DNA from: an uncultured Candidatus Saccharibacteria bacterium
GTDB taxonomy: Bacteria > Patescibacteriota > Minisyncoccia > Minisyncoccales > JAGGXC01
Direction: 5' to 3'
Length of the DNA stretch: 33,333 bases
Assembly: GCA_964391535.1 (NCBI GenBank)
Contig: CAYMMJ010000002.1
Span: forward strand, 1-33,333
Shown: piece after piece, positions 26,300 to 30,777 of the stretch
Position numbering within the stretch: position 1 is the first letter of the stretch
Layout: every line of letters begins with the position of its first letter
Position numbers and translations under genes: made by a program
Notes under the pieces: model-generated
Databases searched by the model: none
What the model was told of the DNA's origin: nothing
The model's input: the letters and a program-made list of their open reading frames with translations, nothing else

Positions 26300-26349
26300 C
26301 ATCTTGCTTTTTTTGATTGTTGTTTGATAATAAAAGCAGGAGATTGAAA

Positions 26350-26583
26350 ATGAAAAAGTTGAAATATTTGAAGATAGGAGAAGAAGGAGAGAAAGCGGCT
26401 GTCGGAATAATGGTTAGAGAAATACCAGAGATATTGTTTATGTGCGAAGATGGAAAAAGTCACCAAGAAAGTTTCAAGATATTATCAGACATATTATCTG
26501 ATATTTTTTCTGAAACTGAACTGAAAAACCCAAAACCGGCGAAAGAATATACAGAGGAGGGTAGCTACCAAACGGTTCAGTGA
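26350..26583 (+). CDS. Small acidic hypothetical protein (77 aa), weakly HicB/UPF0150-like by eye
   Basis: AGGAG at 26338-26342 lies 7 nt before ATG 26350, which I prefer over the track start at 26317. The segment VREIPEILFMCEDGKSHQESFKILSDIL loosely resembles the HicB N-domain pattern (P.l.g....G.T.eEa). Confidence 0.5.
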   Translation: MKKLKYLKIGEEGEKAAVGIMVREIPEILFMCEDGKSHQESFKILSDILSDIFSETELKNPKPAKEYTEEGSYQTVQ

Positions 26584-26717
26584 GGAAAGCTCATTTAGGT
26601 GAACAAAAGTGGGCTTTATTCAAATCAGGAGACGAAATTTTGTTGGTGAAAAAACATCCCTCATCTGCGAATTACCTGATAGAGTGGATTAAGCAAATTA
26701 AATATTATCAGTTTTAA
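26580..26717 (+). CDS. Possible 45-aa ORF overlapping the previous stop (GTGA), weakly HicA-like; may be a remnant
   Basis: GTG at 26580 overlaps TGA at 26581-26583. Translation: VRKAHLGEQKWALFKSGDEILLVKKHPSSANYLIEWIKQIKYYQF. There is no SD at proper spacing, and the ORF is not in the track (below the size cutoff). Confidence 0.25.
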   Translation: MRKAHLGEQKWALFKSGDEILLVKKHPSSANYLIEWIKQIKYYQF

Positions 26718-26771
26718 TAATATATATCTGGGTTTTTCTCTTTATGCCCGTTTTTTTATTTTCTAAATGAC

Positions 26772-26799
26772 TTGTAAGTATAACGAAATAAAGTATAAT
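26772..26799 (+). promoter_or_regulatory. Promoter of the radical SAM/glycosyltransferase/kinase operon (TTGTAA - 16 nt - TATAAT)
   Basis: ttgtaa at 26772-26777 and tataat at 26794-26799, 62 nt upstream of the radical SAM ATG. Confidence 0.6.
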
Positions 26800-26860
26800 T
26801 TCATTAATGAAGCACAATGTGTTTCTAGATGTGCTTATAGTTATATTAATTGACTAAATA

Positions 26861-27979: not shown

Positions 27980-27983
27980 GCTT

Positions 27984-28691
27984 ATGTCGCTTTCGATATC
28001 TATCATTATTCCTACATTGAATGAAGAAAAATATATTGGAGTTTGTCTTGAACATATTAAAACTCAAGAACAAAAACCTGAGGAGATTATTGTAGTTGAT
28101 GCATGTTCAAAAGATAAAACAATTAAGATTGCAAAACAGTATACTGACAGAATTATCAAGGTGGATAGACGGAATATAGCTTACTCTAGGAATATAGGGG
28201 CTTCCGTTTCTAAAAGTGATATCTTGATATTTATTGATGCAGATATCTTAATAAAGAATAATTTTATTAAGATTGTATCTAATTTATTTAAAAATGATGA
28301 TGATTTAGGGGCGATATCAGGAATATTTAAACCTGTAGAGAAAGAAAACAATTTTTTAAATAGATTGATTACAAATTACTTGATTAACACAACAGCAAAG
28401 TTATCTCTTTTGATCAAAAGGCCCCATATCACAGGGGGCGCTTTTGCTGTTAGAAAAGAACTCTTTTTAAAAATCTGTGGATTTAATGAAGAACTTCAAA
28501 CAGCAGAAGATACAGATATTTTTAGAAGATTATCAAAGATTTCAAAGGTGATAATAAGCAATGATTTGGTGATTAAAACCAGTATGCGAAGATTTAAGGG
28601 TCTTGATTGGATTTATGATTGGATTATCGGCTCTCTATATTATGAAATAACAGGTAAAAGTTTAGTTTCTAATTATAAAGTTAAGAGATAA
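27984..28691 (+). CDS. Family 2 (GT-A fold) glycosyltransferase
   Basis: 235 aa. SIIIPTLNEE, EIIVVDACSKDKT, RNIGA, DxD as FIDADIL, and a later AEDTDI motif. Confidence 0.85.
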   Translation: MSLSISIIIPTLNEEKYIGVCLEHIKTQEQKPEEIIVVDACSKDKTIKIAKQYTDRIIKVDRRNIAYSRNIGASVSKSDILIFIDADILIKNNFIKIVSNLFKNDDDLGAISGIFKPVEKENNFLNRLITNYLINTTAKLSLLIKRPHITGGAFAVRKELFLKICGFNEELQTAEDTDIFRRLSKISKVIISNDLVIKTSMRRFKGLDWIYDWIIGSLYYEITGKSLVSNYKVKR

Positions 28692-28697
28692 TCTCTT

Positions 28698-29828
28698 ATG
28701 AAGATTTTGATAACTATTTGGGGCCCCGAATACGGCTGTCTTTTTAGAGAAATTGAAATAGCTAGAGCACTTATTGAGCAGGGACATAAAGTACAATTTA
28801 TTATTAATAAAAATCATATTGAAATAATAAAGAATTACTTTGGAAAGAGGTCAATCCTTTATTATTTTGATTGGAAAATTGTTCAATATAAAGATAATAA
28901 TGATTTAGATTTTTTTAAAACTATCACTTTCTATATGAAGTTCTTATTCTTTAGAGGTGTGAGTGAATTTTCACAATTTAAGAGAGCTGTTCGAAAATTT
29001 AAACCTGATATTATTATTAATGATTTTATACCCCACATTGTAATATTTTCTAAAATTTTAAATTTGAAATGTATAGGTGTATTTAACTATGCGCTAATTA
29101 AACATAACTTAACCCCGACCCTAGTCGGGAAAATTACCCATAGCTTTACTCGTCACATTTTCAATTTATTATATCGGCTAAATAGCTTGAATATTATAGA
29201 AACTATTGGAGAGAAGATGAAAAATACAAAAAATATTATCTTTGTAAAGCCTATCGCCATTGATAAAAAAAGAGATAGAAAATTCCTGAAAGAGAAATTG
29301 GGTATTATTAAAAGTAATTGTTTGTTGGTCTTTTACAGTCTAGGTGGGGGGTTTTACCATTATAAAAACCTTTTACTAATGGATAAATTAATCGAAGGTA
29401 ATGAAGAAATAAGAATTTTTGTTCTCCCCAGAAATAAACAGGAGATTCTATTTTTTAAAAAAAATTTTAAAAATATATTATTTGTAAAAGATTTAGCTTT
29501 TGATCCTTCCGAGTATATATATCATGCTGATTTGATTATTACTAAATGTGGATTTAGGACCATTGTCGACGCTATTAAAAATAAGTGTTTAATTTTACCC
29601 ATTCATACTCCTAATCATCCTGAGATTTTCGAAACAGAGGTTTTATTGAAAAAACACAACCTAGTTTATGATACTATCTCTACTATGGATTATGAGATAA
29701 TAGAAAAAATAAAAAAAGTAGTTTCCTGTAAAACTACTTTATTATCTAATTATAATAAGATAGATTTTTGTGATTTAAAAATAGTATTGGATTTTATGAA
29801 TAAACTAGATAAAAAAGAAAGGAGATGA
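28698..29828 (+). CDS. GT-B fold glycosyltransferase (GT1/GT28, MGT/MurG-like)
   Basis: 376 aa. N-terminal MKILITIWGPEYGCLFREIEIARALIEQGHKVQFI. C-terminal donor-binding pattern ADLIITKCGFRTIVDAIKNKCLILPI...PEIFETEVL. Confidence 0.7.
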   Translation: MKILITIWGPEYGCLFREIEIARALIEQGHKVQFIINKNHIEIIKNYFGKRSILYYFDWKIVQYKDNNDLDFFKTITFYMKFLFFRGVSEFSQFKRAVRKFKPDIIINDFIPHIVIFSKILNLKCIGVFNYALIKHNLTPTLVGKITHSFTRHIFNLLYRLNSLNIIETIGEKMKNTKNIIFVKPIAIDKKRDRKFLKEKLGIIKSNCLLVFYSLGGGFYHYKNLLLMDKLIEGNEEIRIFVLPRNKQEILFFKKNFKNILFVKDLAFDPSEYIYHADLIITKCGFRTIVDAIKNKCLILPIHTPNHPEIFETEVLLKKHNLVYDTISTMDYEIIEKIKKVVSCKTTLLSNYNKIDFCDLKIVLDFMNKLDKKERR

Positions 29829-30682
29829 ATATTAAAAAATTATATTTTTTTTATTCATTGATAGCTTTTTTAATCTTCTTTCCGGTATTTGTATCTTTGT
29901 ACTTGATAGAATATATTTCATTATTAAAACTGACTAGAAAGGAGTATCTTATTAATTATCTCTCGACGTTAAAATGTATAAATAACTCCCTTATTTTTAA
30001 TAAAGAAGGTATTGATATGAAAAGAGTTAGGGGAGGATTTAATAATCACCTAGTTAAAATAAATATTAAGTCTCTAAATAAAACCTTTTTATTAAAAAAA
30101 TATACAAAATTTGGAAGTTTTTTTACTTGGTGGGGTAATTTATTTACTCCATATGGGAACTCTAGAAAGATTAGTGCTAGAGATAGAATAGTAAACGAAG
30201 TCTATTATTATAAGCTTTTGCAAGAAAAAGGTATCAATACACCCAGAATTATAGGATATGACAAGAGGAATAATATACTGATAACGGAATTTATCGAAGG
30301 GGAATTACTCGATAGAATAATAGAAAATAATAATTTGTTATACAGAACAGGAGAACTGATAGCTAAAATTCATTCTTTAGGTATCTATATAAATGACAAT
30401 ACACCCTTAAATTATATTTATAAAGATAACAATATCTACATTATTGATCCAGAAGGATTCTCTCAAAGAGGTAATAGGAAATGGGATTTGGCAATTTTTA
30501 TTTTTTGGATAGAGAACAGATATGATAATCCTGAAAGAAATATTAAAAAATTTATAAACGGATATAATAACAGTAATTATACCACAGAGATAGAAAAAGA
30601 AGATTTAGAGAGAATACTGAGTATGATTTCTTTGTATAAATTAATTTTTAAATTAGGATGCTATTTACGAAAGAAGATATGA
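29825..30682 (+). CDS. Membrane-anchored protein-kinase-fold protein (Bud32/RIO / Kdo-WaaP lipopolysaccharide-kinase-like)
   Basis: 285 aa. N-terminal TM helix (LYFFYSLIAFLIFFPVFVSLYLI). FLLKKY (Lys), RIVNEVYYYKLLQEKGINTPRIIGY, ILITEFIEGELL, IHSLGIYINDNTPLNYI (catalytic D...N) and IYIIDPEG (metal-binding D). The start overlaps the previous stop (ATGA). Confidence 0.65.
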   Translation: MNIKKLYFFYSLIAFLIFFPVFVSLYLIEYISLLKLTRKEYLINYLSTLKCINNSLIFNKEGIDMKRVRGGFNNHLVKINIKSLNKTFLLKKYTKFGSFFTWWGNLFTPYGNSRKISARDRIVNEVYYYKLLQEKGINTPRIIGYDKRNNILITEFIEGELLDRIIENNNLLYRTGELIAKIHSLGIYINDNTPLNYIYKDNNIYIIDPEGFSQRGNRKWDLAIFIFWIENRYDNPERNIKKFINGYNNSNYTTEIEKEDLERILSMISLYKLIFKLGCYLRKKI

Positions 30683-30777
30683 TTATCCATAAAAATGCAA
30701 TTAAATTGATACTCTTTGATATAGAAACAAGATAAGCTCTCCAAAAACTCCCTCTTTTCTTATATAATAGAAAGATA

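Follow-up and report, generated by a model that had tools for sequence, protein, structure and literature searches.

Four tightly packed genes on the forward strand of a contig from an uncultured Candidatus Saccharibacteria bacterium (assembly GCA_964391535.1, contig CAYMMJ010000002.1, positions 1 to 33,333; this whole stretch of 33,333 nucleotides (nt) is called the window) form one operon that encodes a radical S-adenosylmethionine (SAM) enzyme with a SPASM-like tail, a small family 2 glycosyltransferase (GT2), a predicted GT-B-fold glycosyltransferase (GT-B) and a Bud32-like kinase with an N-terminal transmembrane (TM) helix. The catalytic motifs of these proteins are intact, and a GT2-GT-B-kinase core with a radical SAM partner recurs in a few other uncultivated microbes; the cassette is rare and patchily distributed. 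By analogy with known systems, we tentatively propose, as a reading somewhat short of probable, that the operon may work at the cytoplasmic face of the membrane, where it would make and tailor a small membrane glycoconjugate, be it a glycolipid or a saccharide linked to polyprenyl phosphate. We favor this reading because the kinase is TM-anchored, because a distant relative of the kinase lies beside a GT2 of the polyprenyl-phosphate type, because Bud32, Rio and KdoK, the last a family of lipopolysaccharide (LPS) kinases, are grouped in a single cluster of families (PMC1821047), and because the remodeling of lipid head groups offers a precedent: in HpnI-HpnK-HpnJ and in calditol synthesis a radical SAM enzyme acts after a glycosyltransferase (PMC13459092). 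An earlier note on this DNA had envisaged a glycosylated, possibly phosphorylated, envelope molecule or peptide as the product; a membrane or envelope product that is glycosylated and phosphorylated is still the most reasonable reading, whereas the peptide finds little in its favor, since the radical SAM enzyme lacks the domain that recognizes precursor peptides and, in the loci scanned, no small open reading frame (ORF) is conserved beside its orthologues.

The operon and its relatives

Intergenic spacings of +4, +6 and −4 nt, the last an ATGA overlap, bear out the earlier description of the four genes as one expression unit, and no terminator-like site was found on the + strand within the block. 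A promoter-like site, TTGTAA-16-TATAAT, is located 62 nt 5′ of the radical SAM gene and is plausible as the operon promoter. The earlier note had credited the block with this promoter; the site is present, but promoter-like sites are not enriched across the AT-rich stretch (33 found vs 30.4 expected in shuffles), so it is not evidence on its own and the promoter is unproven. An Rfam scan of 26000-31000 matched the tRNA only, so no riboswitch or leader was detected in that interval.

Related contigs and loci fetched for comparison carry L-numbers as labels. In L035, the end of a SPASM-like gene is followed by a GT2 gene (57% identity), a GT-B gene (58%) and a kinase gene (47%); the first 145 nt of this contig encode the gene end KKCSDCFMICSKP, which aligns with residues 324-342 of the window enzyme (E=4e-4). 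In L036, the end of a GT2 gene is followed by GT-B (55%), kinase (47%) and, 3′ of the kinase, a gene whose product has a B12-binding domain and, where the contig stops, the first part of a radical SAM motif (RGCPRNCTF). L034 carries the kinase alone, two genes after murD-ftsW-murG-gltX. A fourth locus, L039, has a TM-anchored kinase relative (31% identical) in a 4-nt overlap with the gene of a GT2 of 231 amino acids (aa), whose best models are AglJ (1.8e-33), dolichyl-phosphate hexose transferase and PpgS, all polyprenyl-phosphate glycosyltransferases. Because of these gene orders, the conserved core is GT2-GT-B-kinase, and the radical SAM enzyme a recurrent but interchangeable partner. Co-occurrence of the four genes in other genomes, which the earlier note had proposed as a check, is borne out in part: the GT2-GT-B-kinase order is kept in L035 and L036, while the radical SAM partner varies, L034 has the kinase alone and L001 has GT2 only. 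Both families are tiny: 5.8 billion clusters yield four kinase relatives (47-49% identity) and two GT-B relatives (55-58%), with only 3 close GT-B members in existence there, and two metagenome-contig scans, one with a kinase alignment and one with a GT-B alignment, found nothing.

These small families bear on the idea that the block holds four unrelated, weakly constrained neighbors, with AT-richness and rarity both due to fast drift. The block proteins are rich in K/N/I/Y/F (40-48% vs 34% elsewhere), the kinase and GT-B families are tiny, and the gene sets differ among loci, all as drift would have it. Against it, the four ORFs are intact, catalytic motifs are invariant over relatives of 26-66% identity, the GT2-GT-B-kinase order and tight spacing are kept at 47-58% identity on two other contigs, and the kinase-GT2 overlap is kept in the kinase relative of 31% identity. 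Overall, we regard drift as a very improbable account of the block.

The radical SAM family has ~15 close members (a genome-contig scan for the family used a 5-sequence alignment), and orthologues of 38-66% identity adjoin glycosyltransferases in five low-GC contexts, the window, L001, L002, L003 and L007. In L001, which holds the closest relative (66%), GT2 alone follows the radical SAM gene and a 324-aa gene ends 24 nt upstream. In L003 the orthologue is found with two GT2s and a methyltransferase, in L007 with a PF13528-type GT-B (hhalign 97%) and a PgaC/HpnI-like membrane GT2, and in L002 with a GT1, a hexapeptide transferase, a PMT_2/ArnT-like enzyme and further radical SAM genes. L002 (GCA_964491045.1, CAZBFA010000004.1, 1-9105) is a cluster of glycan type in its own right: it encodes at least four radical SAM/SPASM genes, one of them intein-interrupted, and a B12-binding radical SAM gene, together with the GT1, the hexapeptide-repeat transferase, a methyltransferase and the PMT_2/ArnT-like membrane glycosyltransferase. 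As a separate observation, orthologues of 45-47% identity occur in three soil Acidobacteriota metagenome-assembled genomes (MAGs; L008-L010), with the match at 10001-11041 and no glycosyltransferase nearby; in L008 and L009 the gene adjoins, on the opposite strand, one for a conserved 792-aa Ser/Thr kinase-TPR protein.

In agreement with the earlier note, which had recognized no characterized pathway, no gene of the block reaches the curated cut-off of any characterized NCBIfam family. The full-text library that was searched contained no description of the four-gene combination, nor of TM-anchored Bud32-like kinases coupled to glycosyltransferases, and literature searches on TIGR04283, on Bud32 with candidate phyla radiation (CPR), and on radical SAM with glycosyltransferase and Patescibacteria found nothing.

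Table 1. Coordinates of the block, its flanks and other features of the window.
Feature	Coordinates	Strand	Remarks
tRNA-Glu, anticodon CTC	26227-26300	+	ARAGORN; Rfam RF00005 match 26227-26299, 61.7 bits
Two overlapping small ORFs, 77 aa and 45 aa	26350-26583 and 26580-26717	+	GTGA overlap; ORF list
Promoter-like site TTGTAA-16-TATAAT	26772-26799	+	consensus scan, 10/12 matches
Radical SAM/SPASM-like gene, 372 aa	26861-27979	+	4-nt gap to GT2
GT2 gene, 235 aa	27984-28691	+	6-nt gap to GT-B
GT-B gene, 376 aa	28698-29828	+	ATGA overlap with kinase gene
Bud32-like kinase gene, 285 aa	29825-30682	+	95 nt to ATPase gene
P-type cation ATPase gene	starts 30778		next gene after kinase
YkuD L,D-transpeptidase/S11 D-Ala-D-Ala carboxypeptidase fusion, 465 aa	120-1517	+	both domains in one protein
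gyrB, 1200 aa	6422-10024	+	intein PF14890 (residues ~558-1064), placed after the Toprim domain
ThyX-like protein, 531 aa	13033-14628	+	Thy1 domain detected at residues 303-457 only; ~300 N-terminal residues with no assignment
Protein of 410 aa	20292-21524	+	between Clp ATPase gene and mraZ; no Pfam match
ORF at FtsL position, 106 aa	23037-23357	+	24.9% G+C, AT-rich like the cassette
Mur ligase, 364 aa	25089-26183	+	final dcw gene; middle and C-terminal domains detected, N-terminal domain not found

The four predicted proteins

The radical SAM domain that the earlier note had called is matched by PF04055 with 83.5 bits (cut-off 29.5) and the SPASM model PF13186 with 35.6 bits (cut-off 21.5). 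The cluster motif CX3CX2C (C44/C48/C51) and the GGE at residues 91-93 are invariant in 16 family members, which together with PF04055 places the protein in the radical SAM superfamily. A canonical SPASM domain has seven Cys (CX9-15GX4C ... CX2CX5CX3C ... C) and binds two clusters. The seven Cys noted earlier are indeed there, spread over residues 279-339, but the family keeps only five without exception (C279, C297, C333, C335, C339). Of the canonical pattern, CX12GX4C can be read (C279, G292, C297), and the second part is shortened to CxCx3C (C333, C335, C339); the C-terminal domain is best described as a putative reduced SPASM/twitch-like domain. The top NCBIfam match is NirJ2 (106 bits vs a cut-off of 500), and further matches (AhbD, NirJ1, StsB, TIGR04053, MftC, PqqE) are all 4-7 times below their cut-offs. 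When the family profile was compared with structures in the PDB, it matched CteB, SkfB, SuiB, PqqE, MoaA, anSME, BlsE (2e-16) and the auxiliary-cluster domain of BtrN (1e-10). BlsE is a cytosylglucuronate decarboxylase, and the BlsE and BtrN matches lend support, at the level of profiles, to sugar chemistry by SPASM/twitch enzymes.

The same matches raise the question of a ribosomally synthesized, post-translationally modified peptide (RiPP), in which a radical SAM/SPASM enzyme would cross-link a small precursor, such as the 77-aa product encoded just upstream, before glycosylation and phosphorylation. The closest solved relatives, CteB, SkfB, SuiB and PqqE, are peptide maturases, StsB/WgkB-type models are among the NCBIfam matches, the GT2 weakly matches the peptide S-glycosyltransferase SunS and the kinase weakly matches the lanthipeptide kinase LxmK (E=0.004), and two small ORFs lie just upstream. 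Only ~35 residues precede CX3CX2C in the window enzyme, whereas CteB, SkfB and SuiB align from residue ~100-118 of their chains; because of this short N-terminus, compared with an extension of ~100 residues in the peptide maturases, an N-terminal RiPP recognition element (RRE) is missing, and no separate PqqD-like gene was matched among the neighboring ORFs. The promoter-like site lies between the small ORFs and the operon, the G+C of these ORFs is normal, and none of the related loci has them; no conserved small ORF was found in the upstream gaps of six loci scanned (L004-L006, L008-L010), and in L001 the position upstream is taken by the 324-aa gene. With no RRE or PqqD-like domain, and no small ORF conserved beside the orthologues in the loci scanned, a RiPP-like cassette is quite improbable.

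The two small ORFs have no Pfam or NCBIfam match, and their sole PADLOC match is a marginal one of the 77-aa ORF to PDC-S03 (E=0.0023). A good Shine-Dalgarno sequence, AGGAG, precedes this ORF, its synonymous codon fit is atypical (z = −2.0), and tblastn of the small ORF and of the ATPase against the fetched related loci gave no match (E <= 0.01). Their membership of the four-gene unit is doubtful. They are the only candidate peptide substrate in the locus, and they could be a small toxin-antitoxin-like pair or a remnant.

Two further identities for the radical SAM enzyme were considered. The first is a viperin, within an anti-phage defense island at the tRNA in which a viperin-like enzyme would make a modified nucleotide with the help of the kinase, and the glycosyltransferases would modify nucleic acid or nucleotides. 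PADLOC gave 83 bits with pVip models and 77.6 bits with a kinase-associated viperin model, the NCBIfam prokaryotic viperin model (NF038283) gave 80.6 bits, and the block is AT-rich and follows a tRNA gene. The viperin score is far below its cut-off of 180 and reflects the shared radical SAM core only (residues 40-236), and viperins have no SPASM domain, while the window enzyme has a SPASM-like C-terminus; GT2 and GT-B have no PADLOC match, that of the kinase is marginal (2.7e-5), searches of phages, plasmids and viral contigs turned up no relatives, neither an integrase nor an att repeat is present, and the neighbors of the relatives are housekeeping or glycan genes rather than defense genes. 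A defense system, for which PADLOC gave only the generic viperin core match, was dropped as extremely improbable. The second is an identity with the Tes/Gms enzymes of glycerol dialkyl glycerol tetraether (GDGT) and glycerol monoalkyl glycerol tetraether (GMGT) lipids, which was also dropped: the Tes-type structure 7tol matches the core only (E=4.9e-9), and Gms homologues exceed 420 aa, with six helices in the N-terminal domain and full ligation of their two auxiliary clusters (PMC11186832), features by which the 372-aa window enzyme was set apart from Gms.

The earlier call of a small GT-A enzyme is right, and that of a GT-B enzyme is right at the level of the PF13528 domain. The GT2 matches PF00535 with 95.7 bits over residues 6-162 and has a DXD motif, D85-A-D87 ("IDADI"), read from the translation, as expected of a GT-A member of family 2. 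Its best model is TIGR04283 (113 bits vs a cut-off of 182), MftF comes third (63 vs 280), and AglG, AglJ and SunS are matched weakly; it is a small soluble GT-A-fold enzyme related to TIGR04283 and MftF below their thresholds. Apart from the L035 GT2, it is 34% identical to the GT2 of L001, and it shares 31% identity with the L039 GT2 over the first 90 residues only, the two belonging to different GT2 subgroups. The GT-B matches PF13528 (Glyco_trans_1_3) with 31.5 bits (cut-off 25) and TIGR00661 (MJ1255-VC2487 type) with 38.8 (cut-off 195.9), aligns with three other PF13528 proteins in hhalign (97.1% probability, E = 4.9e-11) and carries a MurG-like C-terminal donor-binding motif. It gave no match in the PDB by sequence or by family profile, and literature searches on PF13528 yielded unrelated mentions only.

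The GT2 models bring in a soluble small-molecule pathway, in which GT2 and GT-B would glycosylate a metabolite or cofactor made or altered by the radical SAM enzyme, as with MftC/MftF and ArsS, and the Bud32-like protein, tethered to the membrane, would serve as a regulator, an ATPase or a protein kinase rather than as a glycan kinase. TIGR04283, the best model of the window GT2 and likewise of the GT2s of L001, L003 and L035, is ArsS-associated, MftF is third, TM segments are lacking in all of the four proteins but the kinase, radical SAM orthologues stand alone in archaea and Acidobacteriota, and the nearest family of the kinase, Bud32, is both an ATPase and a protein kinase. Against this, the TIGR04283 and MftF scores are below threshold, as is that of MftC on the radical SAM enzyme (78 vs 265), so that membership of these families is not indicated; no MftA, MftB, PqqD-like gene or ArsS-type radical SAM enzyme was found, and ArsS (TIGR04167) is absent from the 25 best NCBIfam radical SAM matches of the window enzyme. 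Moreover, the distant kinase relative is translationally coupled to a GT2 of the polyprenyl-phosphate type, and the kinase has no sensor domain that would fit a regulator. We consider a soluble pathway rather unlikely.

The kinase is best matched by the Bud32 model TIGR03724 (E = 1.2e-21; 77 bits vs a cut-off of 125), is just below the cut-off of APH (23.0 vs 23.2 bits), and matches weakly to RIO and to the LPS kinase models WaaY PF06176 (17.5 bits vs 20.3; E=0.0033), RfaY (17.9 vs 248; 0.0019) and KdkA (16.6 vs 142; 0.003). Hydropathy analysis identified one N-terminal hydrophobic segment, at residues ~5-36, in the kinase only among the four proteins; this TM segment is conserved across the kinase family, and in the AlphaFold2 (AF2) model (predicted local distance difference test score, pLDDT, 81.7) a helix at 3-36 is followed by a kinase fold. 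These results agree with the earlier description of a kinase-fold protein with an N-terminal TM helix; to our knowledge, Bud32 itself has no such helix. The best PDB folds in Foldseek are Kae1-Bud32 and PRPK (E=2.5e-9), and no WaaP structure is among the top 50 fold matches. The family alignments show no change at K91, E125 and D208 and hardly any at D191 and N196. When 1.84 billion representatives were searched exhaustively with HMMER, they yielded 925 kinase relatives, mostly of 500-570 aa and matched in their C-terminal part, and a few are TM-anchored proteins of ~300 aa; given their length and the position of the match, the former may be Kae1-Bud32 fusions. No Kae1-like gene was seen in the window, L034, L035, L036 or L039, so by score and by neighborhood the protein does not belong with Bud32 of KEOPS, and by its scores, with no LPS genes in the window, it does not belong with KdoK, WaaP or WaaY.

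Base composition and surroundings of the block

The window belongs to a low-GC bacterium (33.5% G+C overall) with ordinary housekeeping genes, among them PheS/PheT, an intein-containing GyrB, NusG, ThyX, SHMT, FolD and a Clp ATPase. As the earlier note had it, the division and cell wall (dcw) block ends at tRNA-Glu, which ARAGORN and Rfam both detect, with MraZ, MraW, a small FtsL-like ORF, FtsI and a short Mur ligase upstream. An FtsI relative at least 90% identical was found on a 7972-bp ENA contig.

The four-gene block has 26.9% G+C, compared with 34.4% in the rest of the window and 32.2% in the lowest other 3.8-kb segment; inside the block, 200-nt segments range from 21.5% to 33%. The AT-rich block after the tRNA described earlier is therefore real, but the dip is smaller than the hand counts had suggested and starts at ~26600-26700, not at the tRNA, since 26300-26600, the region of the small ORFs, has 36-39% G+C, which is normal for the window. 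For gyrB, clp and ftsI, which had been placed at 38-50% G+C, the computed values are 37.2%, 33.6% and 34.9%.

The dip sits in codon positions 1 and 2, because the block proteins are rich in K/N/I/Y/F (40-48% vs 34 ± 3.5% in other genes), and G+C at the third codon position (GC3) is just 0.8-1.2 standard deviations low. In a leave-one-out test of synonymous codon choice all four genes were within the native range (z +0.07 to +1.1). A flat G+C and codon profile would have told against the cassette of the earlier note; G+C proved not to be flat, while synonymous codon usage is native-like. The homologues of these genes in four other hosts also exceed their neighbors in AT by 3-8 points, while their G+C follows that of each host. 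No att-like repeat of the tRNA-Glu 3′ end was found downstream, and no integrase ORF lies between tRNA-Glu and the ATPase gene; the repeat search and the ORF list thus confirm what the earlier note had reported on both. Neither tblastn of the kinase against plasmids and phages nor scans of viral contigs with kinase and radical SAM alignments found relatives. Because of the native-like codon use, the dip in positions 1 and 2, the lack of att repeat, integrase and mobile relatives, and the AT-richer homologues in other hosts, the AT-richness is intrinsic to these genes and not a mark of recent transfer. The earlier view of it as the sign of a horizontally acquired cassette at the tRNA is not upheld: codon use is native-like, GC3 is near normal, and the native ftsL-like gene is equally AT-rich. 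The block shows none of the features of a tRNA-integrated genomic island (integrase, att repeat, foreign codon usage), and on its sequence tRNA-Glu does not demonstrably appear to be an integration site.

The tetranucleotide signature of the block, in contrast, is deviant (r = 0.63 vs 0.865 ± 0.013 for six native chunks), and two of the four proteins have their nearest large relatives in archaea. The signature leaves room for an old transfer, which the patchy distribution and archaeal affinities fit as well; rare and patchily distributed as it is, the cassette is probably an old lateral acquisition that has since adapted to its host, not a recent island.

A cell-wall block precedes the kinase in another locus as well. 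In L034 (1-10840) the TM-anchored kinase gene is just 3′ of mraY, murL, bacA, murD, ftsW and murG, then gltX, so that the wall genes are parted from the kinase by a Glu-tRNA synthetase gene there and from the cassette by a tRNA-Glu gene in the window. This proximity may be a coincidence or remnant synteny.

The candidate product and its known counterparts

For the membrane glycoconjugate that we favor, the acceptor, the order of the steps and their chemistry are what we infer from related systems. The small GT2 would move a first sugar from a nucleotide sugar onto a lipid or lipid-phosphate acceptor, and the PF13528-type GT-B would attach a second sugar. The kinase, which its one N-terminal helix would keep at the membrane, would then phosphorylate a hydroxyl of the glycan or of the lipid carrier, a reaction that the related Kdo (3-deoxy-D-manno-oct-2-ulosonic acid) and heptose kinases carry out on the LPS core. 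The radical SAM/SPASM enzyme would tailor a carbon of the sugar or lipid in a single radical step, namely an oxidation, epimerization, dehydration, decarboxylation or ring contraction.

Several observations weigh against this proposal. As no gene reaches a curated family cut-off, every substrate assignment is by analogy. Radical SAM orthologues of 45-50% identity stand alone in the archaeal contigs L004, L005 and P0003 (the last of which carries eIF-1A, NMD3 and RIO1) and in the three Acidobacteriota MAGs (45-47%), so the substrate of the radical SAM enzyme need not be a glycosyltransferase product. The operon includes no flippase, polymerase, priming phosphoglycosyltransferase or lipid-synthesis gene and is followed by a P-type cation ATPase gene, and the kinase of L034 has no adjacent glycosyltransferase of this type. 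Both sequence and fold bring the kinase closer to Bud32, which is an ATPase and protein kinase, than to the sugar kinases, among which WaaY and KdkA give only E ~3e-3. The AF2 model of the GT-B is unusable (pLDDT 41.8), and the whole case is based on about five short metagenomic contigs.

If the proposal is true, it defines a small, new family of Bud32-like kinases that are tethered to the membrane and act together with glycosyltransferases, points to a so far undescribed phosphoglycolipid or lipid-linked glycan in uncultivated bacteria of low GC and reduced genome, about whose envelope chemistry little has been learned, and extends the glycosyltransferase-radical SAM pairing of hopanoid cyclitol ethers and calditol to a new setting. 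A bolder version, which we regard as distinctly unlikely, is that a Bud32-derived kinase has been re-purposed as a membrane-anchored enzyme for a glycan or lipid carrier and, with the two glycosyltransferases and a radical SAM partner, makes a phosphorylated, radically remodeled glycolipid head group not seen before (for example carbocyclic or C-C-linked), the cassette being of archaeal origin and shared by DPANN-like archaea and ultra-small bacteria. The Bud32 lineage would thereby gain its first function outside KEOPS, and organisms with largely uncharacterized membranes would gain a new class of envelope lipid. The practical value is modest: the four genes total ~3.8 kb and are suited to direct co-expression and assay.

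Among known systems, the LPS kinases KdkA, WaaP and WaaY resemble the window kinase in their protein-kinase-like fold, in belonging to the Bud32/Rio/KdoK cluster (PMC1821047), in having genes among glycosyltransferases and in acting at the cytoplasmic face on a lipid-linked glycan. They differ in that the window kinase scores far below their cut-offs, is much nearer to Bud32 and has an N-terminal TM helix; since the window gives no sign of LPS, neither Kdo nor heptose is a likely substrate. Bud32/PRPK, which in archaea and eukaryotes is the kinase-ATPase subunit of KEOPS, is nearest by sequence and fold, with the catalytic Lys, Glu, Asp, Asn and Asp conserved, but the window kinase is below threshold, TM-anchored and in an operon with glycosyltransferases, and no Kae1, Cgi121 or Pcc1 occurs in the neighborhoods read. 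For these reasons a role in N6-threonylcarbamoyladenosine (t6A) tRNA modification is very unlikely.

The HpnI-HpnK-HpnJ pathway and the conversion of glucosyl-GDGT to calditol (Cds) share the pathway logic, in which a sugar is put on a membrane lipid and then remodeled by a radical SAM enzyme (PMC13459092), and membrane GT2s of the Glyco_transf_21/HpnI-PgaC type adjoin the L003 and L007 orthologues of the radical SAM enzyme. In contrast, the window GT2 scores 23 bits on the HpnI model against a cut-off of 310, HpnJ is outside the 25 best of the 79 NCBIfam models matched by the window enzyme, and the known pathways have no kinase. Mycofactocin (MftC and MftF) and ArsS with TIGR04283 offer another parallel, in that directly after the radical SAM gene comes that of a small GT2 matched best by TIGR04283 ("glyco_like_mftF"), with the MftC and MftF models also matched; they differ in that all three window scores given above are below threshold, that the window has no MftA, MftB, MftD/MftE or ArsS-type C-terminal domain, and that it adds a GT-B and a kinase.

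AglJ and AglG are dolichyl-phosphate glycosyltransferases of archaeal N-glycosylation. Together with mycobacterial PpgS they form the last comparison: AglJ, dolichyl-phosphate hexose transferase and PpgS are matched best by the L039 GT2, and AglG and AglJ weakly by the window GT2. Scores are below threshold (116 vs 325), there is no oligosaccharyltransferase or flippase, and the window GT2 falls in another subgroup than that of L039. Overall, every part of the operon is assigned to a known superfamily and none reaches the cut-off of a characterized family; the operon would be of a familiar kind, that of glycoconjugate assembly and tailoring operons, rather than categorically new.

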